The notes under the pieces: generated by a model
Seen by the model: only the letters and a program-made list of their open reading frames with translations
Told to the model about the DNA's origin: nothing
The model's database searches: none
In this document: positions 15,361 through 47,570 of the stretch, in pieces
Position numbering within the stretch: the first letter of the stretch is position 1
How the letters are laid out: every line of letters begins with the position of its first letter
IMG/VR virus record: IMGVR_UViG_3300028146_000003
Span: 1-54,010 of that record
Direction: 5' to 3' (one strand)
Source: a virus
Taxonomy: Duplodnaviria; Caudoviricetes
Length of the DNA stretch: 54,010 bases
Program-made: the position numbers and the translations under genes

Positions 15361-15394
15361 AAGTTTACTGTCCTGGGAGGGACTCCGTAAAGTG

Positions 15395-16327: not shown

Positions 16328-16346
16328 GTCAATCTCCGTACGTTGC

Positions 16347-25350: not shown

Positions 25351-25393
25351 CTTTAACCCTTCTAAGGCCGTATGGTTTCAGCAGTGTGACGCA

Positions 25394-26571: not shown

Positions 26572-27888
26572 CTACCCCATTATCTCCTCGATCAGGATGC
26601 TAGCGAGCGGATTCGTTCCTCCCGCCGACCCCGTCTGAAATACCGTCACGGTGGCTCCGCTGGTGCTCTTGACATAGACCGTGTACGCCGTCGATGAGGT
26701 AGTTCCAGGGGCGTCAAGGCCGCTCCAATGACTTGGAGCTATAAGCGCGAAAGCCCCGGAGGATTGTAATAGAAACTGGGAAGCCCCAACCTGAGCCGCC
26801 GCCGCTCCTCTAAAAATTGCGGATACGTTGGCTGACCCGGAGGCATCTGTTCTGACCACCCCATCCGCAGAAACCCTAACAAGATTGGCAGATCTTGTTG
26901 GTGTGATGGACGCCGTAAGGTTTGACGCCACATAGGATGCAGACGTGGTGGTCGTCTGTGTGCTCGTCGTCCCATATACAGTCTGCACCACAGAGCCGGG
27001 CTTGTTGACGCCGGGACCGAATACTTGCAAAGACGTGCATGAACTGGCCCAAGTGCCGCCAACACTCACGCCAGTAGCATAGTCGCAATAGCCGATAATC
27101 CGCACGGCATCAGCGGAAACGCCAGTCGTGGCGTACAGCACGCCACTGTTGTCAGAAGAACCGCCGCCGCTGAGAGTCACGCTGGTAACAAGCGAACTCT
27201 CCCAAGCCGCGCACGGGAATACGTTGGTGGTGTTGCTACACGTCGCAACAGCCATCACAGGCGAGCCGCCGTTGTACTCTTCGAAGATCCAGACGCGGAA
27301 AGGTATGTTTCCGTTCGAAGTGCCGAGCGTTGCACCCTGCGGGATGGCGATGGACTGAGAGGCAGAAATCGTCGTCCACGTCACCGTGCCTGTCGTCGCC
27401 ACAGTAGACCGGAACGGCACCAAAACCGGATTGGTGCTCGTAGGAGCGGACCCATTCGCCTGCGTCAAGGTGAGGGTGAGTATGTCCCCAGACGCAGAGG
27501 CGGACAAACCAAGGTTGACCGGCATATCATAGCCGGTATTGACGCTAACGACGCCGCAGCTAAAGCCAACGCCGGCCGTCCAGCGCAGTGCTTGATTGAC
27601 GCCCGTACACGCCGGTAGCGCTTCGTCACCTACGCTGACGCCATCTAGGCTGCCCTTGACGGTGTTGGCGGGGCCAGCCGTGAACCCACTGTTGGCGATC
27701 GTACCGAAAACCGGGTCGGAAGTCGCACCTTGGCTGACAAGCGGCCTGCCGGCGGTGCCGGGCACTGCGGCATTGAACCCCGTATTGCCGGCGCCTTTGC
27801 CGATTGGAACGGAGTGTACCGCCGTCTGCTGCGCAAGCGCAGGGGTACAAGCCAGCAAAAGCGCAAATGCGAAAGATGCCAGTTTCAT
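26572..27888 (-). CDS. Tail-fibre-like protein with an N-terminal signal peptide
   Basis: MKLASFAFALLLACTPALA-QQ; S/T/G/A-rich beta sequence; C-terminal GSVVQTV...SITPT...DAPGTTSSTAY fibre-tip-like domain. Confidence 0.7.
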   Translation of the reverse strand: MKLASFAFALLLACTPALAQQTAVHSVPIGKGAGNTGFNAAVPGTAGRPLVSQGATSDPVFGTIANSGFTAGPANTVKGSLDGVSVGDEALPACTGVNQALRWTAGVGFSCGVVSVNTGYDMPVNLGLSASASGDILTLTLTQANGSAPTSTNPVLVPFRSTVATTGTVTWTTISASQSIAIPQGATLGTSNGNIPFRVWIFEEYNGGSPVMAVATCSNTTNVFPCAAWESSLVTSVTLSGGGSSDNSGVLYATTGVSADAVRIIGYCDYATGVSVGGTWASSCTSLQVFGPGVNKPGSVVQTVYGTTSTQTTTTSASYVASNLTASITPTRSANLVRVSADGVVRTDASGSANVSAIFRGAAAAQVGASQFLLQSSGAFALIAPSHWSGLDAPGTTSSTAYTVYVKSTSGATVTVFQTGSAGGTNPLASILIEEIMG

Positions 27889-28496
27889 GGTATCAGAACC
27901 CAAGAGTTGAGATCAGGAGACGGACGAAGACGTACGCGGGCCAGATAGTCCGCCGTTGATTGCAAATTCCACCCCGCTTGCTGCATGATCGTGGCGCCAT
28001 CCGGCGTTGATAATAAAATGGTGTGGTTGACGACGCCCGTAGAAAAGTCGGTCAACACGATGTCTTTCTGCGTAAGGAACTGCGCCGCAATCGTTGGCAG
28101 CAGTACGGCCGTATTGGCAGGCGCGGCACGCTGCACGGCCGCGAGTGACACCCCCGGATTGATGGTGTTGTTCGCAACGGCGAGCGATTGAAACACTGAA
28201 CCGGACGGCGACAGAAACGCTTGCCATAGCGCGGGCGTTGCAGCTTGGTAAGCCCCGGTGATCGGGTTCCAAATGTACAACGTACCTTCGGCCGACCACG
28301 ACGGAATGGCAGGCTTGAACCAAAACGTACTTGACTGATTCGCTGTCGGCGCAACCTGTCCAACCGATAGTGCGAACATGCCGGCACGAGCCAGTGCAGC
28401 GACGATGTAATCAAGTCCCGGCATACGTTCCGATCGCACACCGCTGCCGACAAGCCGCAGCAGCCCCATAAAATCCGTCGCTGGGTTGTAGCTCAT
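27885..28496 (-). CDS. Putative virion structural protein
   Basis: In the coupled late operon; beta-rich. Confidence 0.6.
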   Translation of the reverse strand: MSYNPATDFMGLLRLVGSGVRSERMPGLDYIVAALARAGMFALSVGQVAPTANQSSTFWFKPAIPSWSAEGTLYIWNPITGAYQAATPALWQAFLSPSGSVFQSLAVANNTINPGVSLAAVQRAAPANTAVLLPTIAAQFLTQKDIVLTDFSTGVVNHTILLSTPDGATIMQQAGWNLQSTADYLARVRLRPSPDLNSWVLIP

Positions 28497-28921
28497 ATCT
28501 CGTGCTCATTTTCCGCAGTGTACAGCGGGTTAAGCGCAACTGCGACCGCAACCGGATTGGCGGGCCACACACCGGCCGCCTTCGGCCCAAGGATGGACGG
28601 CTGCAATCCGTAGTTCGGATACCCGCCCCAAAGCAGGCAGTAATCACCGTTGGCGCCAAGATCGTTCGTCGGACGTGCCGAACTGAACCAGTTGAGCGCG
28701 CCTTGGTAGGTCACAGGCACTGCGAACAGATAGTTGCCCCATGGACTCGTTTGGCTGTTAGTGCGCTTGACGTATAGGAACTGCGTTTGCGTATCGATGT
28801 ACACATCACCGATGACGCCGGCAGAGGGCACAGGCTCGCCAGTGCCGAGCAGCACCGGACCGAATTGCTTCGTCTGCGCGAACACGCCGCCTTGCATGGT
28901 CCCGTTGTCAAAGCCTGCCAT
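28493..28921 (-). CDS. Fibre-associated protein with GxGxP...GDxYxD repeats (paralogue of 28921-29550)
   Basis: MAGFDNGTMQGG..., two GD(V)Y repeats. Confidence 0.7.
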   Translation of the reverse strand: MAGFDNGTMQGGVFAQTKQFGPVLLGTGEPVPSAGVIGDVYIDTQTQFLYVKRTNSQTSPWGNYLFAVPVTYQGALNWFSSARPTNDLGANGDYCLLWGGYPNYGLQPSILGPKAAGVWPANPVAVAVALNPLYTAENEHEI

Positions 28922-29550
28922 TATATTGCGTGCTCATCTATGGCCGTGTACAGCGGGTTAAGAGCCACGGCCGCAACAACTGGCGCGCACCGCAACCCGC
29001 GCTCAATAGCCGACACGCCAGCCATTTGCGGGACCGGAATCGACAAGACATACTCAGTGTCGAGGCCAGCAACTACGAGCTGCCACGAATTGCTGAACGC
29101 GACTGACGCGCCCTCATCCGATAGCCCGGCCGGAATTTCGTATCCTGCGTTTGTAGGATCGAGCAACAAATCGGGACCGTCACCACTTTCGGGCCAGTAT
29201 CCGTTGCTGTTCGGCCCGCAAAAAGATGGCTGAAGCCCGTAGTTGCTGTAGCCGGCCCAAAGCAGGCAGTAATCGCCATCCGCGCCGAAGTTGTTCGTTG
29301 GAAGCGAAGAGCTAAACCAGTTCAAGCCCGATTGGTATTGCGCCGGCACCGCGAACAGATAATGGCCCCACGGGTCTGTGCCTTCCGCACTGCGCTTTTC
29401 GTACAGAAACCATGTCTGTACATCCAGATACAAATCGCCAACGACGCCAGCGGCCGGCACAGGCGGCCCGGAGCCCCGCAGTATCGAACCGAACTGCTTT
29501 GCCTGAGCAAAGATGCCGCCTTGCAAAGTCCCCTGGTCGAAGCCGGCCAT
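28921..29550 (-). CDS. Fibre-associated protein with GxGxP...GDxYxD repeats (paralogue of 28493-28921)
   Basis: MAGFDQGTLQGG..., same repeats plus an insertion near the C-terminus. Confidence 0.7.
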   Translation of the reverse strand: MAGFDQGTLQGGIFAQAKQFGSILRGSGPPVPAAGVVGDLYLDVQTWFLYEKRSAEGTDPWGHYLFAVPAQYQSGLNWFSSSLPTNNFGADGDYCLLWAGYSNYGLQPSFCGPNSNGYWPESGDGPDLLLDPTNAGYEIPAGLSDEGASVAFSNSWQLVVAGLDTEYVLSIPVPQMAGVSAIERGLRCAPVVAAVALNPLYTAIDEHAI

Positions 29551-29973
29551 TTACGTGCTGGCTCCCACGTCCCCCGTGCGGGCAATTTGCATGTCCATGA
29601 CGATGCCCGTGCCTTCGCTGTTGTTGATGTTCACGATGCGCAACCGTACCCATCCTTCACGATGAGCACGCCGCGACGTGGCAACAACGATATTCTGCCA
29701 TTGGTCGATCGGACGCGCGGACGCATCCGGCTCGCCGCCGTACAGCTTCATTTCCATGACTACCTGAGCCTCAGGCGCCACGTACGACGACGTTATGGTA
29801 CTGGCCGCAGCGGTGACGAACGCCAGCGAAGCGCGAGCGACGTTGACGGAAATGGTGTTGCCCTTGCTGACGGGCAGCCATCCAGTCGCACTGTTCACGC
29901 TGTCGGCGTAAACGGTGTCGGTCTGGGTGCTGATTCGCGTAGCTGACCCTCCTGGTCTATAGAACAATTGCAT
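29551..29973 (-). CDS. Putative virion structural protein
   Basis: ATG with a GGGAG RBS; beta-sandwich-like composition. Confidence 0.6.
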   Translation of the reverse strand: MQLFYRPGGSATRISTQTDTVYADSVNSATGWLPVSKGNTISVNVARASLAFVTAAASTITSSYVAPEAQVVMEMKLYGGEPDASARPIDQWQNIVVATSRRAHREGWVRLRIVNINNSEGTGIVMDMQIARTGDVGAST

Positions 29974-30454
29974 TCTCCCGTAATCGGAGCCGTACGCCAA
30001 GGTGCAAAATCTGTTCAGCTTTGAGTTGGCCCTTGCAAGTATTGGCAGCATTACTGATTACCCAAACATTGCCCGGCACGTAGCCCAGCTCATTCACGAT
30101 GCGGTCAAGAGTTGGGCTGTTAGGACCGACGCGACCTTTTCCCGTGAACAGCGGAATGCCGAGTAGAGGACAAGTCTCAGGAATAACAACATCGCTGACA
30201 CTTATTGAAAAAGGTACATCCTTTTCTGCCGCTCGATCTTTGGCTCCGTGCCACAGCTTAGCAGATGGGTTTTTGTTGTACCACTTCGACGTGTACTCAC
30301 GCATGTACGTGGTATGTGCGCTTCCGCGCGATGCTCGAAATTTCTTAGTCGCCGTGCGCTGACATTCTATGCAGGCGCGAGTTTTAACGGACCGCAATCC
30401 GCCGTGTCCGCTACGGCACGGCCGCCCCTGAAACGTCTCTGACATCTCTACCAC
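29957..30454 (-). CDS. HNH-like free-standing endonuclease
   Basis: CPLLGIP...SPTLDRIVNELGYVPGNVWVIS..AN..K; N-terminal CxxGH...CxxC. Confidence 0.78.
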   Translation of the reverse strand: MVEMSETFQGRPCRSGHGGLRSVKTRACIECQRTATKKFRASRGSAHTTYMREYTSKWYNKNPSAKLWHGAKDRAAEKDVPFSISVSDVVIPETCPLLGIPLFTGKGRVGPNSPTLDRIVNELGYVPGNVWVISNAANTCKGQLKAEQILHLGVRLRLRENAIVL

Positions 30455-30468
30455 GTACGGCCCCCGCG

Positions 30469-30726
30469 CTATTTGCGGCCCTTGTCGAAAGCCGTGTTAC
30501 CGCTGAAGCGCGTACCAGAGCCCCCGCCCTCGCCGTGGTTGGACTTCGCCAGCCGGCGATTGCCGCCCTCGATGTTCGCCACGGGGCCGGGGAAGCGCTT
30601 CAGGGGGCCAGCGGGCACCGCAGGGCGGCCCCCGAACTTCGTGGCGGGCGGCCCCATGAAGTTCGGGCAGCATTCATTGCTGCCCGTCTTGTTGAAACCC
30701 GTTTTCATGCCTTTGAAGGTGGTCAT
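30469..30726 (-). CDS. Small basic Gly-rich protein
   Basis: GAGG RBS, high GC3; K/G/R-rich. Confidence 0.6.
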   Translation of the reverse strand: MTTFKGMKTGFNKTGSNECCPNFMGPPATKFGGRPAVPAGPLKRFPGPVANIEGGNRRLAKSNHGEGGGSGTRFSGNTAFDKGRK

Positions 30727-30790
30727 GGGGCGGCCCTCGGTCCGGTTGGTATGACACGTTCAAAGCATCATACCACCCAATTTCGGGCTT

Positions 30791-31162: not shown

Positions 31163-31217
31163 GGTCTTGCTCCTTGGTTTGGTGGGTAGATAAACAACGC
31201 TGCGAGACGGTAAAGGT

Positions 31218-33146
31218 TCAATGCACGTCCTTGGTATCGGTTGGCGTTGTGGTCGTCCAGGTTACCACAAGCGATTCGTTTGGGCCTAAACGGATCGGGC
31301 ACGCCACGGCGGCACTCGGCACAGTGCAAAGCGCATTGCCGCCCTTGGTGACTGCGGCGTTAAACGTCGCGCTCTGCCTGATGTAGTGATCTTCCGGTGA
31401 AGGGCCAGCGGTGATGGTGCAGGGCGAGGCGCAGACGTTGGCCGCAGCACTGATGCCCACCGGATTGTAGCCGGCATTACCTTCGATACGGTTGTGCGTA
31501 CCGGTTGATGCATTGGCGATATTAGTTCCGTTGCTGTTAAATCCGTTGTTGCTGACTACGACGTAATCACTGGACGCGGCGATATTAACCCCTGTCGTAA
31601 GCGTCTGAAAATTATTTCCCCCAATCAAAAAACCATTGTTTGTTGACGAAGCCGCGATATCCACCCCGATCCCCCCACCGACTCCGGCAAACGTGTTGCT
31701 ACCTATTGAAACTCCCGCCACACCCGCCACGCCTGACTTGATCCCGTCATTCCCGGCAGGCAATATGAACAAAGTATTGACGATCGACACGGCGGATATT
31801 CCACTCTCCAAGTCAATCCCGGCCGTAGATGTCGTCCCTCCTGGGTTTATTTGGCTATTGCTAACGGTGAGTTCTGTCAAAGCGGCAATGCCAGCCGGCA
31901 CCAAAATACCGATTCCGACTGTTGTGAGGTAGGTGTTGATAACGAATACCCCCTGCGTGAGGGCGTCCATTTGTATCCCAACAGCTTGATTTAGGATAAT
32001 GCAGTTGTTGATAGTTAGGCCGACTGCCGGACTGGATAGCCCGGTGTTCCCTATGAACTCAATTCCGGTCCCAAACGGACCCCCAGGCTGTTTGCCGACA
32101 ATGTAAACGCCCGAGATCTGGACGTTAGATACGTTTTGAATGTTGATTCCGGTTAGCCAACCGTTAGCCCCAGGTGGGTTAGTACTCCCCTCTATGTTAA
32201 GATCATATAGTGTCGTCGGCCGCTGGACCGCAGCGTTCGAGTTTAGGATAGGAAGTTTAAGGGTGAGTCCGTTGCCTCCTGGCGACTGGTTTGTTTCTAT
32301 CGTCAGCGCTGCGACGGTAGCTGAAGCGTTTATAGTCGTGTAGTCGATTTCCAGCCCGTCAGTGCTGTTAGCAAAATTCAGCCGGGTAGTGGACGACCCG
32401 GAGCCTGTTATAGTCATTGACGGCTGAAAAGCACTGTTGGTGGCGACGTTGATCGTGTTGCACGTCACTTTTGACAGCATCAAAAACCGGCCCGGCGGAA
32501 ACTGAACATACGGGCTGGCCGCGCACGCCGCCGAAAAAGCCGGGGCGCTATCCGCCAACCCCGTTGGGTCCGCGCCGAAGGATACCGGATTTACTGCCGC
32601 CCCCTTTGTGGCTGAGTTCGGCGTTGTCTGGTCATAAAAAATAGGATCGATCAGAAGCGTGTTAACCGGACCGCCCGGCGATACTGCACACACGCGCGCT
32701 TGCGTGTACATCACATAGTAATCAGCTTGCGGCGATGCCTGAATTACAATGCTGGGCGGCGTTGACGGACACGCGGCACCCCAAGCAACTGCCGTACCGC
32801 CGGCCACAGTCATGGCGGCCGACAACGTGATGCCTGTCGTACCGTTGTACGCAGTGACCGTAGTTCCTGACGCGATACCGGCGCCTGAGATCAGGCCGCC
32901 GACGATCGGAGGCGTTGCAGGAGTCGCCGTCAACGTAAGTGTCGTGGACGCGCCGGACGTGCTGCCGATGCCAGATCCTTGCGATGTGAAAATTGATGCG
33001 TTGCCCGCAATCATGCGGACTTTTATGGGACCGTTGCCGATGTCGGCGATGGTGTTTGCAGCAATCGGCAGCGTGACGGCGCTCTGCGCCAGTGCGGGCG
33101 CCGCGTACAGTGCCATACAGCATAGTAGGATTTTTTTCATTTTCAT
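31218..33146 (-). CDS. Tailspike/depolymerase (pectate-lyase-3-like beta-helix) with a signal peptide and a shared N-terminal module
   Basis: MKMKKILLCCMALYAAPALA-QS; VNPVSFGADPTGLADSAPAFSAA...FPPGRF beta-helix start; G/I/N repeats; ATGA-coupled start. Confidence 0.82.
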   Translation of the reverse strand: MKMKKILLCCMALYAAPALAQSAVTLPIAANTIADIGNGPIKVRMIAGNASIFTSQGSGIGSTSGASTTLTLTATPATPPIVGGLISGAGIASGTTVTAYNGTTGITLSAAMTVAGGTAVAWGAACPSTPPSIVIQASPQADYYVMYTQARVCAVSPGGPVNTLLIDPIFYDQTTPNSATKGAAVNPVSFGADPTGLADSAPAFSAACAASPYVQFPPGRFLMLSKVTCNTINVATNSAFQPSMTITGSGSSTTRLNFANSTDGLEIDYTTINASATVAALTIETNQSPGGNGLTLKLPILNSNAAVQRPTTLYDLNIEGSTNPPGANGWLTGINIQNVSNVQISGVYIVGKQPGGPFGTGIEFIGNTGLSSPAVGLTINNCIILNQAVGIQMDALTQGVFVINTYLTTVGIGILVPAGIAALTELTVSNSQINPGGTTSTAGIDLESGISAVSIVNTLFILPAGNDGIKSGVAGVAGVSIGSNTFAGVGGGIGVDIAASSTNNGFLIGGNNFQTLTTGVNIAASSDYVVVSNNGFNSNGTNIANASTGTHNRIEGNAGYNPVGISAAANVCASPCTITAGPSPEDHYIRQSATFNAAVTKGGNALCTVPSAAVACPIRLGPNESLVVTWTTTTPTDTKDVH

Positions 33147-34483
33147 GGTGTCTGCGTCTCGATGATGATCGGAAGCGTCCCCACGGCAGTTGCCGAATCC
33201 GGGAGCGTGATCATGGCGCCGGTCGTGGTCGAGGTCACACCTCCAGCCGTGTCCCGATATTGAGTGTAAGGCGGCGAGTGCGCCGGTACCGTGTAGACCG
33301 ATGGGCCGCTCGTGTCGAACACGGCGAGCCCGGAGTAGCCGAGTGGGTAGCTCCGAATGAACTCGCAGGTCCAGACCGTCCCGCTGATCGCGCACGGGTT
33401 CGGCGTCGCCGCGCCGGCCATCCAGAGCCGGGTCTGCTGGTACGCCACCCCGGGCTGGAGCAGCGCGAGCGTGCTGTTGTTGATGAGCGTGCCCCAGCCT
33501 GCGATGATGTAGCCGTACCAAATCTGGACCTTGGCGCCGAGCTGCCAATGGATGAGCATGTCCTGGGAGACGAACGCGGACTGTCCGGCCAACTCGGGCC
33601 GGCTGGTGTCCAGGTTCCATCCGCCTTCGGAGTCCCATCTCTGCTTGTTCTGGAGACCCCACGGTGTGAGAAGGCAACTGATCGTAAGCTGAAAGCGGCT
33701 GTAGATCACGCTCGGCGTGTCGCCTCCGGTCGAGAACCCGGCGTAGGCGTGCCAGGTCACCACGTCCACGTCCGTGGTGCCGCCAGCAGCGAAGTAATCG
33801 TAGTAGAAATATCCTGCCTGAAGGCAGTCGTCGCGCGGCTCTATCGAAGGCGTGCTGATCAGTACAGTGGGCCAATTCGCGCGCAGCCAGTCGTGCATGT
33901 GATTACAATAGAGCACGACGTTGGCGATCGTGACACCGTTTGAGACGCTCGCCTGCGGCTCGTTCCAGCACTCGATCAGGTTGATGACGTCTGAATACCG
34001 CGCATGGAGCGCAGCCATGAACGTGTCCAGCGAGCCCAAATCATCAGGCGGCAAACTGCTCACCCACTGCCCCGTAATGGAGTTGACGGAGCCGGTGCCA
34101 GCAGCATGGTTAGCAACGGCCCACCCTGGCGAGCCGCCCATCGTGTACATCATCTTAACGCTCTGGGCGCGTGCTACATTCGCGATAGTATCGAGATCGT
34201 GCCAATTGTAGGTACATAGCGGCGTGCAATTCAAACCATTTGCGTTGGGACTCGTAGGCTGAACATAAGGCCACGATGTCTGCGGGGTCTTTCCGTAATA
34301 CCCAACCGTCCAGCTTCCCTGTGTTGTAGGGTTTGATCCGGCGCAGCATCCGACCGTGACGCTGAAGAACGAGTTCGGTATCGCGTTAAGCGTCGGGCCA
34401 ACGCCGTGCGTCCAGCCGCTCAGCAACAGAGCCCCACATAGCGCGAGCGACGACAACCCCAGTGCGGCGAGGAGGCGTTTCAT
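33143..34483 (-). CDS. Clan GH-A glycoside hydrolase (GH39/GH5-like) with a signal sequence
   Basis: MKRLLAALGLSSLALCGALLL; YNWHDLD, PGWA, ECWNEP (acid/base), TWHAY, DSEGGW (nucleophile). Confidence 0.8.
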   Translation of the reverse strand: MKRLLAALGLSSLALCGALLLSGWTHGVGPTLNAIPNSFFSVTVGCCAGSNPTTQGSWTVGYYGKTPQTSWPYVQPTSPNANGLNCTPLCTYNWHDLDTIANVARAQSVKMMYTMGGSPGWAVANHAAGTGSVNSITGQWVSSLPPDDLGSLDTFMAALHARYSDVINLIECWNEPQASVSNGVTIANVVLYCNHMHDWLRANWPTVLISTPSIEPRDDCLQAGYFYYDYFAAGGTTDVDVVTWHAYAGFSTGGDTPSVIYSRFQLTISCLLTPWGLQNKQRWDSEGGWNLDTSRPELAGQSAFVSQDMLIHWQLGAKVQIWYGYIIAGWGTLINNSTLALLQPGVAYQQTRLWMAGAATPNPCAISGTVWTCEFIRSYPLGYSGLAVFDTSGPSVYTVPAHSPPYTQYRDTAGGVTSTTTGAMITLPDSATAVGTLPIIIETQTP

Positions 34484-36177
34484 TGGCATTTCACCGGAAG
34501 GGCGGTCACTGGGATGGTGCTTGTCGTGATCGTCACCGCGTTGCTGCTGGCATCGACGCAGGCCGCGTAGCCCCCGGAGATCGTGAACGTGGTGGGGCCG
34601 CCTCCGGTGTCGAAGTAGGTCGAGAACGGCACGCTCGCCCCGGAGGTCCAATTGCAAGTCCACTGCCCCGTCCCTTGCGCAATCACACATCCAGTTTTAG
34701 CAAGCGTCGCACCCAAAATCCATGACCGCACATTCTTATAAGCCGTGCCGGCTGCGTTCGGAGCGCCGCTATTGTCGGTGAGCGTTCCCCAGTTAAGCCC
34801 TGCCTGCCCGTACCAGTGCGCCTCCAGGTTCCCCCAATTCCAGTGGCCTATCGACCACTCCGAGGCGAAGTTCGTTTGGTTGGTCGAAGATGGGCATGAA
34901 ACGTCCGTGAGCCACCCTCCCTCCGAGTCTATGACCGGCTTGGTGCCAAGCCCGTATGTCTGGAGCAAAGGCAGCATCCGGTAGAACCGCGTGTTAAGAG
35001 CTGCGATATTGGCGCACCCTCCGTACCCATGCCACGTCACCACGTCGAAATCCGACGCTGGCGCTGCATTTCCAAACTGAGACGCATAGGACGCGAAAAA
35101 CTGCCCGTAGAATGACGTCGGCTGGGTGAAGCTGTCAGGCTGGAGAGATGGGGTCGTGGTCTTGATCAGCGGCCAGTTCGCATGAATATAGCTGTTGATC
35201 AATTGGCAGTAGGTGGCGACGATCTGGGCAGTGGTCAGAGCATTGGTCGCCGGCTCGATCCAGCACTCGATGTAACGGATTGCCTTGTGAATCGTCCCGG
35301 TGTCGGCGTTGTACTTCGTCAGTAGATCATTGAGGAATATCGGTATCGGGCCGGTTGGGCTCCTATCATCAGGAGGCAGGTAGCTAACCCATTCTCCTGT
35401 GATGACGTTGACAGCACCGTTCGTCGTGTGATTCGCCACCGCCCATCCGGGGGTCCCACCCATGCTGAAGCCGACCTCCGTTCCGCTCGATTCCGCGACG
35501 GCGAATTGAGCGTCAGCGCCATTGGGGTTGCCGCACGGACCGACAGTCGCATAGTTGTAACTTGCTTGGGAGGTGGGCTGAATATAAGTCCAGCCTCCAC
35601 ACGGCGTCGAGAATCCGAGCGGCGAGGCGAGCGCGGGGAACGGTGCAGAGGTCCACACGTAAGGAGCGTTAGATGAATAGATGTGCATCCCGAAAAATTT
35701 GGCCGGGACGGCCCCGGTCACGATCGGGGCCAGATTACCGAACGGGAAGTTTTCAGAGAAGAACGTTGGTGACAGCGTCAGGTCGTTCAGGTTGGCGATC
35801 GTGTTGGCGCCGATCATATAGGTGTAAGGCTGGCCCGCATTCATTGCGTTGCGGCCTACCGCGATCACTAAATTAGCATCCGTCGCAAGCCCGTACCCGG
35901 TGTTGCTTGCGGAACTCTGTAGAAGGCCGCCGATCGGCCCCTGTGATGAAACAATAATCCAATACCCGGAGTAAGTGCTGCCATCAGATATTTTCTTCGC
36001 CGTCACGTTCGATAGCGCATACGTAGGGTTGTCTACAAATCCAGAAACCAAAGCATCGGCCTGCGCCGCGGCCTTGTTGGCGTACTGAAATACATAGTCT
36101 ATCTGCTCAGCCTTGGCCGACACGGCGGAATAGAAGATCACCAACAGTGCGAATATGATTCTCATGGATGATCTCAC
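34480..36177 (-). CDS. Clan GH-A glycoside hydrolase paralogue with a signal peptide and an extra N-terminal domain
   Basis: MRIIFALLVIFYSAVSAKA-EQ; FFGMH, PGWA, ECWIEP, TWHGY, DSEGGW. Confidence 0.78.
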   Translation of the reverse strand: MRSSMRIIFALLVIFYSAVSAKAEQIDYVFQYANKAAAQADALVSGFVDNPTYALSNVTAKKISDGSTYSGYWIIVSSQGPIGGLLQSSASNTGYGLATDANLVIAVGRNAMNAGQPYTYMIGANTIANLNDLTLSPTFFSENFPFGNLAPIVTGAVPAKFFGMHIYSSNAPYVWTSAPFPALASPLGFSTPCGGWTYIQPTSQASYNYATVGPCGNPNGADAQFAVAESSGTEVGFSMGGTPGWAVANHTTNGAVNVITGEWVSYLPPDDRSPTGPIPIFLNDLLTKYNADTGTIHKAIRYIECWIEPATNALTTAQIVATYCQLINSYIHANWPLIKTTTPSLQPDSFTQPTSFYGQFFASYASQFGNAAPASDFDVVTWHGYGGCANIAALNTRFYRMLPLLQTYGLGTKPVIDSEGGWLTDVSCPSSTNQTNFASEWSIGHWNWGNLEAHWYGQAGLNWGTLTDNSGAPNAAGTAYKNVRSWILGATLAKTGCVIAQGTGQWTCNWTSGASVPFSTYFDTGGGPTTFTISGGYAACVDASSNAVTITTSTIPVTALPVKCQ

Positions 36178-37646
36178 TGCGCGTTCAGGGACGACAGGCT
36201 CGACACAGACGAAGGATTAGTAGCGGATGGAGACATGGCAACTCTCTCTAAGTACCCATCATAAAACTTGGTCGGCGTCGTCAGGCTGTCGAACAATACA
36301 GTAGTGGTTGCCGTTCCTAGATTGGACGCGCCGCCGAACAACGTGGCTGCTGCGAATGCGCCTCCGTTCGCAGCAATTCCATTGCCCGCCAACGACCCAT
36401 TCCCCCACGTTACAACGATCTTGGTTCTTCCGGTTGTGTTGGCGCCGCCTCCGAGAGTCGCGTTTGATCCTGAGTTGTTGGCGACAAGTGTAACGATGGT
36501 CGTTGTGGCGGATAGCAGGATTCGATTCGTGGTCCCTCTGGTGAAGGGGGCGATGGGTGCTCCCGCAGCATTTCTTGAGCCGCCCATAATGGCGTAAAGC
36601 GTTCCAGTGGCCCCTCCCCACAATAGAGATGAACGATTTCCTGGAGTGGTCTGGGCGGCATCCAGCGCCCTGAATTGTGGATTGTAGGTCGTGAACACCG
36701 GGCTTGTCGCATAGGTCATGCCGGTGTTTTCGAGCTGGTTGTTGTCCACTACGGCCACATCGCCGCTGGTAGCGAACTTGAGGCCGATGATCGGGTTCGT
36801 GAGCGCGGCTTGAGATATCCAGCACCACACAAAGGCACCAGTAACGATGTTCGACGCCGCCCCGGTCGAGTCTACGCAATTCGCGGATGACAGTGTGGTG
36901 AACGTCGAGTTGTCTAGCGTGGCCTGGATGTTTCCAGAGCCTGTCACCCGCTTAACGTGGAGCCCATAGACATCGGTGGCCGACGCCAGCGTGACCGCCT
37001 GGAGGATCGTGCCATTGGCGGCCCCAGCCGTGAGCGTGGTAGCGCTGTTCGCCGTCCCATCGATGCCGGTGGCATTAAGCGCGGCCGTGATGTTGGTGGC
37101 CGCCCACACAGCAGCGGATGAGACGATGGTGGCCGTGGCGCCGCTGGTCCCTCCGGTGATCGTACCGGTGAAGGTCCCCGAGCCGCCGGACAGCGCCAAG
37201 AAGGCGAGTGGAGAGGACTCGGCCAGCACGTAGGTGCCGGTCCCGCCCCCGGTCGCGGTCAGGGTCTCGCCATCGGTGAAGGCGCCGGTAACTCCGGTGA
37301 CGCTAAGCTGCGTCGTAATCGCGAGGTTTCGCGAATGCAGCGTCCAGTTCGTGGTGCTTTCCTCGATCAACCAGCCACGGCTAGAAATCCTAGGAATGTT
37401 TGGTGCGTAGGCGTACCAAACACCAGATTGCTTATCTTGCGCCATCCCTGAAGTGACGCGGTTTACCGTGAACTGAACGTCAATCGGACAATTATAATAT
37501 CGCGAACCAGCAAAGTCGCAGTCCATGGCCGCGCCGGGGAACGCCCACTGAGGGGCACTACGCGGCAGATAAGGAACGTGTTGCGCCTGAGCCGGTAAGA
37601 CCGGCGCCAGCGAAACGACGATGGCGATGATGAGGCAACTTCGCAT
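36174..37646 (-). CDS. Fibre/spike-like protein with a signal peptide
   Basis: MRSCLIIAIVVSLAPVLPAQA-QH; GWLIEESTTN, QLE...ATSP..T and RALD motifs typical of phage fibre/lectin-like proteins. Confidence 0.68.
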   Translation of the reverse strand: MRSCLIIAIVVSLAPVLPAQAQHVPYLPRSAPQWAFPGAAMDCDFAGSRYYNCPIDVQFTVNRVTSGMAQDKQSGVWYAYAPNIPRISSRGWLIEESTTNWTLHSRNLAITTQLSVTGVTGAFTDGETLTATGGGTGTYVLAESSPLAFLALSGGSGTFTGTITGGTSGATATIVSSAAVWAATNITAALNATGIDGTANSATTLTAGAANGTILQAVTLASATDVYGLHVKRVTGSGNIQATLDNSTFTTLSSANCVDSTGAASNIVTGAFVWCWISQAALTNPIIGLKFATSGDVAVVDNNQLENTGMTYATSPVFTTYNPQFRALDAAQTTPGNRSSLLWGGATGTLYAIMGGSRNAAGAPIAPFTRGTTNRILLSATTTIVTLVANNSGSNATLGGGANTTGRTKIVVTWGNGSLAGNGIAANGGAFAAATLFGGASNLGTATTTVLFDSLTTPTKFYDGYLERVAMSPSATNPSSVSSLSSLNAQ

Positions 37647-37873
37647 CAGAACCTCTTGGGTGGCATGGACGGACAGACCCGCGCGGCTTCCTGCGCACCC
37701 CTGTCGGTGATAGTCCAAACGAGAGGATCGCGCGAAGCGGCGAAGCCGTCGCGCACCAACGTCTTGATCTCGTCTGCCGTTACCATGATAGCGTCGAACG
37801 GCATGCTCGGCTGATCGACCGCATAGGCCATGTGATGGATCGCGAGGGCGCAAAGAATCTGCAACGGCGTCAC
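37646..37873 (-). CDS. Small hypothetical protein
   Basis: GTGA and TGATG coupling on both sides; LVRDG...WTITDRG winged-helix-like end. Confidence 0.5.
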   Translation of the reverse strand: MTPLQILCALAIHHMAYAVDQPSMPFDAIMVTADEIKTLVRDGFAASRDPLVWTITDRGAQEAARVCPSMPPKRF

Positions 37874-38511
37874 GGCTTGGTGACCTCCAGGAGCACCGTG
37901 AAGACCTCGGCATTGCCGGGCGCGTAGGCCCCGCGCGCCTCTACCAATCCGTATACCGTCGAGGCGGCCGGCACCACGTCGCAGGCGACGCCGTTGTTCG
38001 GCACGCCAAAGCCCCACCCGCCGTCCGAGAACGGATCGGTGGTCGGCATGTTCACGTCCATGGTGCAGAAGTAGCCCACGGAAGTCGAGGAGAACGCGCC
38101 GTTGTCGCCGTTCGCCACGGTCGGGCTCGTCGTGTAGAGGTGCAGCCGAAAGTTCGGGGCGGTGGCCCCCGTGGTTGACTTGTTGATGCGGACGCGCCGG
38201 ATCGAGACCCCCTCAGCCGAGAAGTCGTTCACAGTCCATGATAGCGGAGTGACTGAGCCGGCGGTAGTGCTGTTGGCGATAAGGTCTCCAACCGCATAGG
38301 CCGTGGTGTCAGCAGGTCGGGTGAAATTCGCGGATGGCGTCACGAGTTGGTAGACGATTGGCCGCATCGCCTGGAGGCCGCCGCCCACGTCCGTGGAGCG
38401 CATCGTCACGCCGGAGCCCGGCGTCAGGATAACCGCGTTGTCCGCCGCCAGGAGCGGCCCCAGCATCACCAGGGCCAGAAGGACGCAGACGTTGAGGATG
38501 ATCTTCTTCAT
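37870..38511 (-). CDS. Signal-peptide protein, beta-sandwich
   Basis: MKKIILNVCVLLALVMLGPLLA-AD; TRPADTTAYAVGD, FRLHLY; GAGG RBS. Confidence 0.7.
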   Translation of the reverse strand: MKKIILNVCVLLALVMLGPLLAADNAVILTPGSGVTMRSTDVGGGLQAMRPIVYQLVTPSANFTRPADTTAYAVGDLIANSTTAGSVTPLSWTVNDFSAEGVSIRRVRINKSTTGATAPNFRLHLYTTSPTVANGDNGAFSSTSVGYFCTMDVNMPTTDPFSDGGWGFGVPNNGVACDVVPAASTVYGLVEARGAYAPGNAEVFTVLLEVTKP

Positions 38512-38521
38512 GGCCTCGGTC

Positions 38522-38698
38522 CTATTGGATGACGGCGACGGCGATGTTGCACGTGGCCAAGTTGAGGGACGAGCACCCCGGCGCCGCGACGTAGGCGCTG
38601 CCGACGCCGGTGGTGAGGAGCGCCGCGACCGCGAGCTTGACGGCTAGGACCGCGCCCACGCAGCCGGCCCAGATGGCAACCTTGCGGAGACGGTTCAT
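38522..38698 (-). CDS. Small hydrophobic/signal-peptide protein with a Cys pair
   Basis: MNRLRKVAIWAGCVGAVLAVKLAVAA...GCSSLNLATCN; ATGA coupling. Confidence 0.55.
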   Translation of the reverse strand: MNRLRKVAIWAGCVGAVLAVKLAVAALLTTGVGSAYVAAPGCSSLNLATCNIAVAVIQ

Positions 38699-39522
38699 CG
38701 GTACTTCGCCTCGATGTAGACGCCGGTGATGGTGTTGGAGCCGTCGGTGTCGGCGCCGCCGCCGACGACGCAGAACCCGAGCCCCAGGGTGTACGTCTCC
38801 GGGTCGTTCGGGATCGCCAGGCCGCCGCCCGACGACGATGTGCCGAACGGGATCGGGTACACGTGCTTGAGGCCGGTCGCGCTGTTGCATGCCGGGGCGG
38901 CGGCGAGGTCATAGAGTTTCAGGTAGGCCAGCGCCGCGCCCGTGTTGATCGGGACGATGGAGCACAGGGTCCGCGCGCCGGTGGCGATCAGCGTCGAATT
39001 GCTCGACGCGGCCGTGCCGTTCGGAAGATGGTATGGCGTGCATGGCGCCCCAGTGACCGGCTGTGACGTGGTTCCGGTTGGGTCAACACGAAGCGGTGCG
39101 GCGGACGTACCAATCTGGTTGCCAGAAGCATCGTTTATAGCTACGTCAACCAGACGCGCGGAACCGACCGACTTACCAGTAACGCCGGTCAGATTCCCAC
39201 CAATATTGACACCACTATAAATAGCGTTCGGCGGTACTACCGATCCGGTAGGTGCTGTGCCCGCATTGACGGCACCGATCAGGTTACCGCTCGCGGCTGT
39301 GTCCACAACCCACGGCACGGTGCCTTGAGTGACAGACGTACTCCCGCTGGCACCGTCACAGAGTTTACCCGTTGCGTCCATCGTCAGGTAGCCGTACGTC
39401 GCGGCAGCGAGCGATTGCGATCCGCACGACGACACGATCAGGGCCTGCCCCGGTTGCTGTGCGTTCGCGGGCGCAATGAAGGCACCCAATGCCAATAAAA
39501 CGAAAAGCAGGATTCTGTTCAT
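38695..39522 (-). CDS. Signal-peptide protein, fibre/adhesin-like
   Basis: MNRILLFVLLALGAFIAPANA-QQ; Cys pairs; YLKLYDLAAAP C-terminal domain. Confidence 0.72.
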   Translation of the reverse strand: MNRILLFVLLALGAFIAPANAQQPGQALIVSSCGSQSLAAATYGYLTMDATGKLCDGASGSTSVTQGTVPWVVDTAASGNLIGAVNAGTAPTGSVVPPNAIYSGVNIGGNLTGVTGKSVGSARLVDVAINDASGNQIGTSAAPLRVDPTGTTSQPVTGAPCTPYHLPNGTAASSNSTLIATGARTLCSIVPINTGAALAYLKLYDLAAAPACNSATGLKHVYPIPFGTSSSGGGLAIPNDPETYTLGLGFCVVGGGADTDGSNTITGVYIEAKYR

Positions 39523-39830
39523 CGTGCGCGCCCCGTGTCGATCTTCTCGATTACCCCCGTAAACGCAGTCGCGCCGACCACGACCATGCTGTACTGACCC
39601 GCCGGCAAATCGAGAACTTGGTAACCCGCTGCAGCGGCCACTGGCATGACAGGCGCGTACGTTGCGCCGTCAGGCAGCAACCTTTTGAGCTGATAGCTCG
39701 TAAAACCGGCAGTCTGCACAGTGAGACCGTACCGTCCAGCGTCCAGATTGAAATCGGTGGCGGGCGTTGCGGCGAGCGCGGCCCACGACTGATAGCTTCG
39801 CGGTATGTTCTTTACGGGGTTAGCGGCCAC
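39519..39830 (-). CDS. Putative small structural protein
   Basis: GTG start, beta-rich (LPDGATY, LPAGQY), ATGA coupling downstream. Confidence 0.6.
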   Translation of the reverse strand: MAANPVKNIPRSYQSWAALAATPATDFNLDAGRYGLTVQTAGFTSYQLKRLLPDGATYAPVMPVAAAAGYQVLDLPAGQYSMVVVGATAFTGVIEKIDTGRAR

Positions 39831-39874
39831 TGGTTTCAGCCCTTTGCTGGATGACGCGATGCCACGGGAACAGC

Positions 39875-40936
39875 CTATCTGCTCGCTTGAGCGTAACTAC
39901 CGAAGTCCGTCGATACGCCATATTGTCGGCCACTACCGCCGTAACCGCGAGCCAAACCATGCACACGAAGAACGCGCCCCACAGCAGCAAGAGCCAGAAA
40001 CGAAGTGACCGGCATGAAGAGAGGCATCGAATAGCAGCCAGCCACAGCGAACGCGAGAACGATGGGCCATTCTTTAACGTCTGTACGCCAGAGCGCGTAG
40101 CCGAACACAGGGAGCAGGAGTGCTGCACCAATCCCGTATTCGAATGCAAGCTGGAGAGCGTCATTGTGTACGTATTCCGGGTAGAACGAATAGGAGCCGT
40201 CCTGCGGCATCGCGATAGTATAAAACACACCCGGCCCCCAGCCAAGCCATTTCAGATTGGCCCATGCGGTGTTCCAAATCGACATGCGCAGTGCATCGCT
40301 CGGCAGTAGCGGCGTGAACAAGTAAAACGCGCCCGCAACCCCGACAGCGCCAAGTACCCAAAGACGGCGCACATAGCACGCGAGCGCGCCCACCGCGAGC
40401 GCAATCCACGCACCGCGCGAATGAGCCATAAACACCCCCGGCATGATCGGAATCGTCCAAAGCCACATGCGCTCCGAGACCAGAGCGACGGCGATCAAGG
40501 CCAGTATCAGACCCTGCTGGACGCTACTGATGTACAGACCAGGCATAGAGCCGGCGTCATTCGACGCCACTGTTAGCACAAGATCCCACCCGAAGTATTG
40601 CAGAACCGCCAGCGCCGACGACACCGACGCACCAACGGCCAAACCGGCATAAAGGCCCCTCATGTTCGTTGCGACGGTGCCGAACCACACGGACAGCCCC
40701 ATGATGACGATCAGCCACAGCCCAAATACGCTGGCGTACGGAGCGGGGCTGAACGGCAATCGAGCGGCGGCGTAGGCGACAAACGCCAAACCCGCCGCGT
40801 GGAACGCGGTAAATAGCCCGCTGCGCAACAACCCGAAAGACAGCAGCACAGCCAACACGGGCCATTGCGTGGCAATGTACGCCCCGGTGACGCCGGGGAC
40901 GTAGCAAAGCGACACAACGGCCCCTAACCAGAACAT
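39875..40936 (-). CDS. O-antigen ligase / O-oligosaccharyltransferase-like integral membrane protein (Wzy_C family)
   Basis: Many TM segments; HSRGAWIAL, R..IW..A, GWGPG, HNDALQLAFEYGIG hallmark motifs. Confidence 0.82.
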   Translation of the reverse strand: MFWLGAVVSLCYVPGVTGAYIATQWPVLAVLLSFGLLRSGLFTAFHAAGLAFVAYAAARLPFSPAPYASVFGLWLIVIMGLSVWFGTVATNMRGLYAGLAVGASVSSALAVLQYFGWDLVLTVASNDAGSMPGLYISSVQQGLILALIAVALVSERMWLWTIPIMPGVFMAHSRGAWIALAVGALACYVRRLWVLGAVGVAGAFYLFTPLLPSDALRMSIWNTAWANLKWLGWGPGVFYTIAMPQDGSYSFYPEYVHNDALQLAFEYGIGAALLLPVFGYALWRTDVKEWPIVLAFAVAGCYSMPLFMPVTSFLALAAVGRVLRVHGLARGYGGSGRQYGVSTDFGSYAQASR

Positions 40937-40957
40937 TGGTCGATCTTTCGCGCCGGC

Positions 40958-41497
40958 TTAGTGCGCCCCGATGGCAAACTGAAGGATGGTGGCACCCGGA
41001 CCGTTTCCGCCGTAGGCGCACACGCGCGCTTGCGTGTAGAACGGAATGTCGGCGCCGACTGCCGCCTGTACGAGCGCAATTCCCGCTGTCGGCGGCGCCG
41101 CAGGACATGCAGCACCCCACGAGACTGCCGTACTCGATGCAACGGTCATGGCGGCCGATAGCGTGATGGTTACACCGCTGTATGCGCCGACGGTGGTGCC
41201 CGATGTGATGCCCGTGCCGGAAATGACGCACCCGACACACGGAACCGTCGTCGGTGTCGCCGTCAGCGTCAGAGTCGTTGACGATCCCGACGTACTGCCG
41301 ACGCCAGATCCTTGCGACGTGAACAGCCCGAAGTTGCCGCCGAGCGTACGGATCTCGGTCGGCCCGTTGCCGAGGTCAACGACGGTCCTCGCATTGATAT
41401 TTGTCGGGACCGCAACCACCGTTTGCGCGAAAGCCTGGAGCGGGATCAACGCAACCAGCGCAACCGCCAACGCAGCGCGGAACTTAGTGAGCTTCAT
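40958..41497 (-). CDS. Signal-peptide Ser/Thr-rich protein, stand-alone paralogue of the tailspike N-terminal module
   Basis: MKLTKFRAALAVALVALIPLQAFA-QT; FTSQGSG.GSTSG.STTLTLTATP, WGAAC and YTQARVC are shared with 31218-33146. Confidence 0.75.
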   Translation of the reverse strand: MKLTKFRAALAVALVALIPLQAFAQTVVAVPTNINARTVVDLGNGPTEIRTLGGNFGLFTSQGSGVGSTSGSSTTLTLTATPTTVPCVGCVISGTGITSGTTVGAYSGVTITLSAAMTVASSTAVSWGAACPAAPPTAGIALVQAAVGADIPFYTQARVCAYGGNGPGATILQFAIGAH

Positions 41498-47513: not shown

Positions 47514-47570
47514 TTTGCCGTGCTCCGCTTTGAGTTGCGGAAGGATAGCACGGCTACGGCCGGCTGTCAC

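Follow-up and report, generated by a model that had tools for sequence, protein, structure and literature searches.

Introduction

Classical fibres, spikes and decoration proteins of tailed phages are synthesized and assembled in the cytoplasm, and the fibres and spikes normally carry no signal peptide. What, then, is to be made of a tailed phage whose late genes include a series of fibre-like and depolymerase-like proteins that open with export signals, with a membrane enzyme of the Wzy_C/WaaL type among them? The question is raised by IMG/VR virus record IMGVR_UViG_3300028146_000003, a single contig of 54,010 bp from a tailed phage; the window analyzed here covers all of that record. The exported proteins of its late block are referred to below as SP1 to SP8, and the membrane enzyme as the WaaL-fold protein. 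The analysis confirmed that the eight late proteins carry genuine, conserved and, as predicted from their sequences, cleavable Sec-type signal peptides. Comparison with related loci also showed that SP8 and the WaaL-fold gene belong to the core gene set and occur as a pair, while the remaining exported proteins are cargo carried in two slots of variable content.

Results

Signal peptides of the late block

The exported proteins, and one small reading frame between them, lie as follows.

26572-27888, minus strand: SP1, exported fibre-like protein of 438 amino acids (aa), 6 Cys, predicted cleavage ALA/QQ; last gene before the endolysin gene
31218-33146, minus strand: SP2, exported tailspike-like protein of 642 aa, 9 Cys, predicted cleavage ALA/QS; SP8-like N-terminal module and pectate-lyase-like beta-helix
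33143-34483, minus strand: SP3, exported protein of 446 aa, 10 Cys; hydrophobic N-terminus without an AxA site
34480-36177, minus strand: SP4, exported protein of 565 aa, 10 Cys, predicted cleavage AKA/EQ; paralogue of SP3
36174-37646, minus strand: SP5, exported Ser/Thr-rich protein of 490 aa, 4 Cys, predicted cleavage AQA/QH; no family match
37870-38511, minus strand: SP6, exported protein of 213 aa, 2 Cys, predicted cleavage LLA/AD; variable cargo
38522-38698, minus strand: hydrophobic open reading frame (ORF) of 58 aa in the gap between SP7 and SP6
38695-39522, minus strand: SP7, exported beta-rich protein of 275 aa, 6 Cys, predicted cleavage ANA/QQ; variable cargo
40958-41497, minus strand: SP8, core exported protein of 179 aa, 4 Cys, signal peptide of ~24 aa with predicted cleavage AFA/QT; mature part of ~155 aa

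Signal peptides were called by a heuristic rule of our own, and not by a trained predictor, at every in-frame start of all 316 stop-to-stop ORFs of at least 80 aa. The rule asks for a basic n-region, then about 10-20 uncharged hydrophobic residues as the core, with small side chains at positions -3 and -1. The eight starts that an initial annotation of this DNA had singled out as Sec-like (27888, 33146, 34483, 36177/36165, 37646, 38511, 39522 and 41497) indeed open real ORFs of the minus-strand late region, and all eight genes were found to encode a basic n-region and an uncharged core of 15-20 residues, followed by a small-residue cleavage motif. The same annotation had described the sites as mostly AxA; SP3 (34483) has no such site. 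Cleavage as predicted would leave Gln as the mature N-terminal residue in five of the eight. Elsewhere in the scan, cores of at least 15 residues occurred only in a protein resembling an outer-membrane protein (OMP) at 21118, in internal helices of the WaaL-fold gene, and in an out-of-frame shadow ORF (14805-14443); thus the OMP-like product is the only Sec-like start outside the set. A weaker ninth signal peptide had been proposed at 38698, but this start opens the short hydrophobic ORF of the SP7-SP6 gap, which was not supported as a signal-peptide protein and was not flagged by the scan of ORFs of at least 80 aa.

Because these calls came without a dedicated predictor, the evolutionary evidence is the strongest for the signal peptides, and the conservation check bore them out. 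SP8 has 413 homologues in a collection of 5.8 billion proteins, and its presequence and cysteine statistics cover the 120 of them that were listed. All 120 have a presequence, which varies from 19 to 39 aa and drifts in both sequence and length; its n-region is net positive in 119, its core spans 15-25 residues, Ala occupies position -1 in 115 and position -3 in 110, and the cleavage site is followed by a near-invariant mature start, Q-[TV]-V. A drifting presequence that ends in a fixed cleavage site is the pattern produced by selection for export and cleavage. SP8 also has its signal peptide in 14 of 14 close viral loci, and signal peptides were retained in every homologue found of SP1 (7/7), SP7 (4/4) and SP6 (1/1). 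Shine-Dalgarno-like motifs or stop/start overlaps are present at the long starts. Export by the Tat pathway was considered and dropped, as the exported proteins have no twin arginine.

The composition of the mature proteins was in accord with the earlier description of them as Ser/Thr-rich and often Cys-paired. Ser and Thr together make up 19-26% of the mature exported proteins, compared with 7-18% of the proteins without signal peptide, and charged residues make up 4-13%. The number of cysteines is even in seven of the eight. Over the eight mature proteins there are 51 cysteines in 3,076 residues, compared with 18 in 4,017 residues of eleven late proteins without signal peptide, i.e., a 3.7-fold higher density (Fisher p=3e-7). 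Such paired cysteines make sense only outside the cytoplasm.

The core pair, SP8 and the WaaL-fold gene

The core pair and its immediate neighbours on either side are listed here.

39519-39830, minus strand: small protein of 103 aa without signal peptide; no family match
39875-40936, minus strand: 353-aa polytopic protein of the inner membrane with a WaaL fold (Wzy_C-like); part of the clade's core gene set
41561-42298, minus strand: g41561, 245-aa protein without signal peptide, first gene of the unit; 63-79% identical in relatives

The mature part of SP8 is predicted to be all-beta, with two cysteine pairs and a conserved C-terminus, IGAH. Four cysteines are found in 113 of the 120 homologues, and the six homologues with two cysteines have lost the CxxC pair together; the other pair, C131 and C160, is invariant in 52 aligned sequences. 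No conserved lipobox was found in the family. An AlphaFold2 model of SP8 had a mean predicted local distance difference test score (pLDDT) of 88.8, but Foldseek found no match to it in the PDB at E<=0.001. The best match was the decoration protein of Arthrobacter phage Bridgette (8eci), which aligned with SP8 residues ~61-130 over 73 columns at 36% identity and a root-mean-square deviation of 2.3 Å (E=0.1); pieces of several tailspikes ranked next, and a profile comparison by hidden Markov model (HMM) with 8eci was also weak (E=0.17). In BFVD, four uncultured-phage proteins matched at E<=0.001, and in one of them the small domain of SP8 is fused to an HK97-type capsid protein (E=3.3e-4). When VIA-align was run against 48,161 chains, the best Z score was 7.7, with cupins and phage proteins tied at about this value; the overall fold of SP8 was therefore left without assignment.

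The initial annotation had placed a Wzy_C-family membrane gene inside the block, and this was borne out at the level of the family and the fold. The window protein itself matches Pfam Wzy_C (PF04932) at 27.6 bits, below the gathering cut-off of 31.7 (E=2.9e-6), but 37 of 44 aligned relatives match at E<=1e-3, the best at 2.5e-9. No NCBIfam match was obtained, a search of the PDB with the single sequence returned nothing useful, the family profile reached no PDB sequence, and GenBank phages yielded no match either. When the family alignment was used for an AlphaFold2 model (pLDDT 82.6, predicted template-modelling score 0.85, ~13 helices), the best match of this model in the PDB was the O-antigen ligase WaaL (7tpg_B, E=4e-6, template-modelling scores 0.56/0.51), followed by the SEDS proteins FtsW and RodA. 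Arginines R156, R174 and R217 are invariant in the family, and H257-N258-D259 is near-invariant (at least 90% of sequences), a stretch that we presume to resemble the H-N-x9-G motif of ligases. It is justified to call the product of 39875-40936 a Wzy_C/WaaL-fold enzyme; the roles of ligase, polymerase and protein O-glycosyltransferase would fit it alike and cannot be told apart. WaaL, Wzy, PglL and SEDS proteins work on the outer side of the inner membrane, where they act on glycans linked to undecaprenyl diphosphate.

At E<=1e-3 the WaaL-fold family comprises 172 proteins, of which the top 120 are at least 55% identical to the window protein (closest 81%) and lie on contigs of up to ~54 kb. 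The gene therefore belongs to the core set of a substantial uncultured clade and is no stray moron. A predicted complex of mature SP8 and the WaaL-fold protein reached a score of 0.01, where the mark was 0.32; this counts neither for nor against binding.

Gene order across relatives

The comparison set consisted of 19 viral loci that hold a relative of the WaaL-fold gene, of which 14 are close and the rest more distant. The close loci have a common order: a large protein of 1,3xx aa, g41561, SP8, the WaaL-fold gene, a first variable slot, then g30791, g29551, g28921 and g28493, one to three genes of the g27885 type, SP1, a second variable slot, the lysis genes and the large terminase gene TerL. 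SP8 lies directly upstream of the WaaL-fold gene in 14 of 14. The first slot holds from none to six signal-peptide genes (none in L001-L003, three in L004, six in L014) and is filled by SP2 to SP7 in the window; the second holds further signal-peptide genes in L008 and L012. The homologues of the 103-aa protein directly follow the WaaL-fold gene in L004, L009, L012, L013 and L014.

In two distant lineages, in which the WaaL-fold gene is 32-44% identical, it again follows small signal-peptide proteins just past the capsid genes. The order in L015 is capsid protein (phrog_212, 1e-80), a 182-aa protein, SP165, SP146, WaaL-fold gene, SP137 and SP305; that in L018 is TerL, portal-like gene, capsid protein (phrog_9953), a 304-aa protein that matches fibre and virion-structural families, SP131, a 148-aa protein, WaaL-fold gene and further structural genes. 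As for g41561, its nearest named clusters in the protein Atlas were phage cement proteins (score 0.84, a lead only), and it is possible that it is a capsid cement or decoration protein.

Two further features of these small proteins may be recorded. In the distant lineages (L015:2998-6350, L016:1576-2481, and the 131-aa gene of L017-L019) the small Cys-paired signal-peptide proteins that flank the WaaL-fold gene are different from SP8. Many of them end in aromatic-rich sequences (...IEYY, ...FSQY, ...GFQF), whereas the SP8 family ends in the near-invariant IGAH.

The cargo proteins

The cargo proteins, to judge from their sequences, are built like receptor-binding proteins or depolymerases, although none of the eight exported proteins has a Pfam or PHROGs match. 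The mature parts had been likened to tail fibres, a beta-helix tailspike and glycosidases; the beta-helix with its N-terminal module held up in SP2, whereas the glycosidases rest on short motifs.

SP1 homologues in seven loci share the signal peptide and the mature start QWQTPN, and range in total length from 413 to 1,275 aa, with a conserved mature N-terminus and a variable C-terminus; the protein Atlas gave weak leads only. A lipoprotein or spanin identity for SP1 was rejected, since the Cys found in some SP1 signal peptides is not conserved, while AxA/Q is. SP3 and SP4 are 37% identical over 378 aa (E=1e-53), and neither they nor a joint SP3+SP4 profile, the latter used against PDB sequences, found a match in Pfam, PHROG, NCBIfam or the PDB; a word-based homologue search with SP4 returned only SP4 itself, and its single-sequence PDB search nothing useful. 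By eye, their alignment contains W-[NI]-E-P and S-E-G-G-W motifs, from which it is possible that the two are TIM-barrel glycosidases of clan GH-A. The core of SP3 is followed by a G-W-x-H-G motif common to a relative, and a similar N-terminus is found on a 1148-aa protein in L004. The SP6 homologue in L008 keeps the signal peptide and the mature start ADNA. SP7 has one signal-peptide homologue in L013 and three in L014.

The SP2 protein joins two parts, as its residues 1-165 are 56% identical to SP8, while the remainder belongs to a large family. SP2 itself had no Pfam match, reached NosD only at E=0.03, and gave nothing useful in a single-sequence PDB search; a scan of viral contigs with the full SP2 found no relative, nor did one with P0287. 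Its C-terminal domain (C-domain), on the other hand, has 730 homologues at E<=1e-3. When ten of these were scanned, three matched PF12708, a pectate-lyase-like family (two of them beyond the cut-off; best score 58.4 bits), and two matched NosD, and the matching homologues are related to SP2 at E=2e-87 or weaker. These matches support a beta-helix of the depolymerase type for the C-domain. No member of the family was found in GenBank phages, and the ten C-domain clusters that were looked up were all metagenomic, with a single 'NosD' label.

A wider family of exported beta-helix proteins

Predicted export signals are widespread in this family. Among the best 150 of the 730 homologues, 134 were full-length (Met start, at least 400 aa), and 81 of these 134 (~60%) have a signal-peptide-like N-terminus, while 53 do not; a stricter rule gave 70 of 150. 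The N-termini of the 53 resemble, by eye, those of ordinary phage fibre proteins. Even and odd numbers of cysteines stand at 57:24 in the relatives with signal peptide, compared with 25:28 in those without (p=0.011). The signals of SP2 and its 81 signal-peptide relatives are of the Sec type, without twin arginines. When bounded by HMM, the extreme N-termini of the family mostly separate by signal-peptide status, with one clear pair that shares a motif across the two classes.

Signal-peptide relatives of SP2 with visible context lie in phage structural modules. In an unrelated lineage of ~40 kb (L020-L024), two adjacent genes encode spike-like proteins of 536 and 635 aa with signal peptides. 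The capsid gene lies on one side of this pair and other virion genes on the other, and a coiled-coil protein of 90 aa that resembles a lipoprotein comes after it.

L024:7639-11712 (also in L020-L022): pair of signal-peptide spike genes in the structural module

No Wzy_C gene was found in any of the five L020-L024 records (0/5), two of which are at least 90% complete, nor did the family profile detect one in the loci retrieved. The link between exported spikes and Wzy_C that the initial annotation had proposed is therefore not general, while the pairing of a small signal-peptide protein with the WaaL-fold gene is.

The phage and its lifestyle

Apart from the exported block, the window encodes a recognizable tailed phage, with a helicase, an exonuclease, a Gp2.5-like single-stranded DNA-binding protein, a DNA polymerase and a primase/helicase on the plus strand (all by family match). 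Other features of note are these.

14513-15298, minus strand: PAPS-reductase-like protein (phrog_424, E=1e-26), among the morphogenesis genes
15395-16327, minus strand: likely HK97-type major capsid protein of 310 aa (weak match to phrog_371, E=0.0033)
16428-16937, plus strand: homing-endonuclease-like gene, HNH-like by eye, interrupting the late region
18966-19451, plus strand: GroES-like co-chaperonin (phrog_3188, E=1e-4), among the morphogenesis genes
21118-21846, plus strand: OMP-like exported protein of 242 aa, signal peptide AIA/AD, alternating beta pattern, C-terminal ...LSLKW
23045-24757: large terminase TerL, by family match
25027-25654, minus strand: two small proteins after the endolysin, each with one membrane helix and a coiled coil
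25636-26568: VanY-like endolysin, by family match
27885-28496, 28493-28921, 28921-29550 and 29551-30051, minus strand: four fibre-like genes without signal peptide, 54-70% identical in relatives, with 0-3 Cys each
29957-30454, minus strand: homing-endonuclease-like gene (phrog_3322, E=1.7e-30), interrupting the late region
43506-47570, minus strand: 1,354-aa protein with no Cys
Connector-family protein of 482 aa, by match to phrog_578

The position of the capsid ORF places ~25 kb between the capsid gene and the cement-like g41561. It overlaps a longer plus-strand ORF (15392-16369), which is a shadow. The presence of TerL, a portal-like gene and an HK97-type capsid protein led us to drop the idea of an internal-membrane phage.

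The four fibre-like genes without signal peptide are candidates for ordinary, cytoplasmic receptor-binding proteins. The g27885 family among them is nearly Cys-free, with a conserved N-terminus of ~100 aa and variable C-termini, a build typical of receptor-binding proteins of virions. The minus-strand genes 28493-28921 and 28921-29550 are tandem paralogues, whose first ~122-131 residues are common (55-62% across the relatives' copies) before they diverge, and the pair is kept in relatives.

The 21118-21846 product lies outside the block, is the ninth exported protein of the genome and resembles a small outer-membrane barrel. The earlier reading of it as an OMP held as to the export signal and the OMP-like C-terminus, but no family match was found in Pfam, PHROGs or NCBIfam, nor a relative in species genomes.

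On the minus strand, the genes from ~42.3 kb down to TerL form one tightly packed run with many overlapping stops and starts. The exported block lies on this late-gene strand and is not a separate transcription unit, as stop/start overlaps continue from g41561 to TerL. Terminator-like sites in the run were not enriched (20 compared with 18.3 expected). The strongest such hairpin of the region (43524-43496, minus strand; 13-bp stem and T run) overlaps the stop of the 1,354-aa gene, and a promoter-like site (42499-42472, minus strand) stands ahead of g41561, at which the operon of exported proteins may start.

The phage is distant from those in culture. No near-DNA match was found among GenBank phages, and its terminase is at most 31.6% identical to the terminases of 135 GenBank phage records. 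An integrase family was found in none of the ORFs of at least 250 aa, those under ~210 aa having been only partly scanned; no tRNA gene was found in the window; and the SP8 profile found no relative in 185,579 species-representative genomes. On the grounds of the integrase and species-genome results we treat the phage as virulent-type: it is uncultured and virulent-looking, with its small ORFs only partly scanned. One SP8 homologue, P0235, comes from a 23.7-kb contig that NCBI labels as a Planctomycetota metagenome-assembled genome; this may be a mis-binned phage contig or a hint of the host.

Discussion

A proposed module aimed at host surface glycans

Sec signal peptides that are predicted to be cleavable and are kept in relatives, paired cysteines and a WaaL-fold neighbour are established by the data presented above; from here on we infer. 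The reading that we favour, with a probability of about 40%, is that the genes of the block form a late-operon module of a virulent-type tailed phage, whose products pass through the periplasm, are directed at the surface glycans of the host, and are not building blocks of the particle. Late in infection, the Sec system of the host would export the proteins of the block, and these would fold with disulfide bonds in the periplasm. The WaaL-fold enzyme would handle an undecaprenyl-diphosphate-linked glycan of the host, as its family does, with SP8 as its partner or acceptor. The cargo proteins would bind or cut the polysaccharide of the host surface, initially within the periplasm and later, once the cell has burst, as free enzymes stabilized by disulfides, and the receptor glycan would thereby be removed around the lysing cell and its neighbours.

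Several observations agree with such a module. A link to glycans is seen in the WaaL fold of the membrane protein and in the PF12708 matches among homologues of the SP2 C-domain. The variation of the cargo, from none to six signal-peptide genes among 14 relatives, is what one would predict of proteins that follow changeable host glycans. The clade also has the g27885-family fibres without signal peptide, in one to three copies, so the particle does not have to rely on the exported proteins. The bacterial protein WceF and a periplasmic capsule depolymerase, both taken up below, are precedents. It also counts for a role outside the virion that the phage exports an OMP-like protein, which cannot be a virion part.

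Nonetheless, a number of points weigh against this interpretation. Periplasmic enzymes cannot reach glycan that is already on the cell surface. In three lineages, the signal-peptide protein or proteins and the WaaL-fold gene adjoin capsid or capsid-surface genes, and part of SP8 weakly resembles a capsid decoration protein. The relatives of SP8 are 48-73% identical and those of the WaaL-fold protein 55-62% (first four loci), compared with 74% for TerL, and conservation at the level of structural genes is unusual for accessories directed at the host surface. The signal-peptide spikes of L020-L024 occupy the fibre position of a structural module, and N-terminal motifs of exported beta-helix relatives recur on fibres without signal peptide (one clear pair, the rest by eye). 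Finally, the glycosidase label of SP3 and SP4 has no database support.

Other explanations

The same observations lead to the strongest rival, which we regard as somewhat unlikely: that the exported proteins are virion parts that reach the particle by way of the periplasm. It sharpens the proposal of the initial annotation, which the analysis supports in part. SP8 would then be a capsid decoration and SP1, SP2 and other cargo would be accessory spikes, disulfide-bonded and possibly O-glycosylated with host glycan by the WaaL-fold enzyme, that dock when the holin opens the membrane or at the burst. The recurrent order of a capsid-surface gene, small signal-peptide protein(s) and a WaaL-fold gene, the conservation of SP8 at core-gene level, and the signal-peptide spikes at the fibre locus of L020-L024 speak for it, as do the Bridgette match of SP8 residues 61-130 and the fusion of its small domain to an HK97-type capsid protein. 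The adaptor-plus-enzyme build of SP2 is tailspike-like, and SP1 similarly combines a conserved N-terminus with greatly differing lengths. Docking of this kind is physically possible, given that decoration proteins and fibres of model phages bind particles in vitro. Against it, docking would be confined to the seconds around lysis, the clade already has fibres without signal peptide, and the structural matches of SP8 are weak, as seen from the PDB and VIA-align results. No virion protein of a tailed phage is known to us to have a cleaved signal peptide, and the literature searched on signal peptides of phage fibres and depolymerases yielded no published precedent. Moreover, the bacterial protein WceF, discussed below, shows that a retained N-terminal domain need not mean virion binding.

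This rival has a bolder form, which we consider unlikely, namely that some tailed phages build their outer surface partly outside the cytoplasm. Sec-exported, disulfide-bonded SP8 and spikes would be glycosylated by the WaaL-fold protein, acting as an O-oligosaccharyltransferase (OTase) with host undecaprenyl-linked glycan, and would snap onto finished particles when the holin opens, so that the progeny would wear host sugar and oxidatively hardened spikes.

It is improbable, although not without arguments, that the exported enzymes are lysis helpers that accumulate in the periplasm beforehand and, at the burst, remove envelope polysaccharide or the barrier of the outer membrane, replacing or joining a spanin. 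SP1 ends 4 bases before the start of the endolysin gene, a search for lipoboxes around the lysis genes yielded no convincing lipoprotein (o-spanin) candidate, and a lipoprotein-like protein follows the signal-peptide spikes of L020-L024. However, that no spanin was found says little; a distance of 13 kb separates the lysis genes from SP8 and the WaaL-fold gene, which adjoin a capsid-type gene; and the cargo varies among close relatives, unlike lysis machinery.

A lysogenic-conversion or moron cassette of the D3 or VarioGold type, altering the O-antigen of the lysogen, is very improbable. Temperate phages do carry Wzy_C genes beside small exported or membrane proteins. In the present phage, however, the WaaL-fold gene is a clade core gene, the genes are packed and overlapping on the late strand from g41561 to TerL, no match was found in GenBank phages, and the integrase and species-genome searches gave the negative results stated above. 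The view of the initial annotation, that the missing integrase makes lysogenic conversion the weaker explanation, is thus upheld within the ORFs covered.

That wrong start codons, or N-termini that are hydrophobic by chance, only mimic signal peptides, as might be suspected from calls made without a dedicated predictor and from the missing AxA site of SP3, is largely refuted by the retention of the property, with a fixed cleavage site, in all 120 listed SP8 homologues and likewise in those of SP1, SP6 and SP7, by the translation signals at the long starts, and by the Cys enrichment of the exported set.

Comparison with known systems

The individual pieces of the module each resemble known things, and remodelling of envelope glycans by phages is of a known kind. 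Serotype conversion by Wzy-beta of Pseudomonas phage D3 is reportedly such a case. In D3 (Iap-Wzy-beta-Oac) and Variovorax phage VarioGold (VG_p25-p28), as in the window, a polytopic enzyme of the Wzy_C family lies next to small exported or membrane proteins; these modules are reportedly temperate morons near the integrase, set against the orientation of the late genes and presumed active in lysogeny. In VarioGold, the Wzy_C gene VG_p25 adjoins VG_p26 (299 aa, with a signal peptide), beside the integrase (PMC9658991). The window differs in that no integrase (ORFs of at least 250 aa) or prophage copy was found, in that its enzyme is a core gene in the late structural strand beside a capsid-type gene, and in that up to seven further exported fibre-like proteins accompany it.

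A second parallel is WceF of Pantoea stewartii, an exported tailspike homologue that cuts exopolysaccharide and is described as keeping a head-binding-like domain without a virion (PMC7949094). WceF is similar to SP2 in having a signal peptide, a tailspike-type N-terminal domain and a right-handed beta-helix, and it cuts the cell's own surface glycan; it is unlike SP2 in being chromosomal, in an exopolysaccharide biosynthesis cluster, and in using a Tat signal, where SP2 and its signal-peptide relatives are of the Sec type. A periplasmic capsule depolymerase has reportedly been described as well (PMC6003464).

Classical tailspikes (the P22 tailspike, LKA1 gp49, phi92 and the spikes of Klebsiella phages) share with SP2 a conserved N-terminal module joined to a variable beta-helix and encoded in variable cassettes, and SP8 has weak fold matches to parts of such spikes. 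The classical spikes lack a signal peptide, as do 53 of the 134 SP2 relatives; the other 81 carry one. The gene pair of SP8 and the WaaL-fold protein, to judge from the genes alone, is in turn similar in order to the acceptor/OTase pairs PilA-TfpO, ComP-PglS and pilin-TfpM, in which a Wzy_C-family enzyme is encoded directly after a small, exported, disulfide-bonded protein. SP8, however, is not a pilin, and no OTase-specific family match was found for the WaaL-fold protein. Compared with WaaL itself (7TPG), the window protein is 16% identical, shorter (353 residues compared with 403) and has shorter loops. The Bridgette chain 8ECI, which its depositors named 'Decoration protein', aligns with less than half of SP8 (~70 residues), and to our knowledge carries no export signal. 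As a combination, namely a core SP8 and WaaL-fold gene, their position in the structural strand beside capsid genes, a changing series of proteins with Sec signals that are built like receptor-binding proteins, and a virulent-type phage, the module matches none of the known systems.

Implications

A large uncultured clade, known from 413 protein clusters for SP8 and 172 for the WaaL-fold protein, has retained both an exported protein and a WaaL-fold enzyme in its core gene set, next to the capsid genes. If the exported proteins were indeed virion parts, the finding would be categorically new, since virion assembly would have an extracytoplasmic branch, and virions may carry host glycans. If, as we favour, they act apart from the virion, they would represent a widespread and unrecognized phage toolkit that attacks the surface glycans of the host from inside the envelope. 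Such enzymes would need disulfides and periplasmic expression, which bears on the mining of depolymerases, and a role apart from the virion would bear on host-range prediction as well. Under either reading, annotation pipelines in which any beta-helix protein becomes a 'tail spike' would give the exported ones a wrong label.

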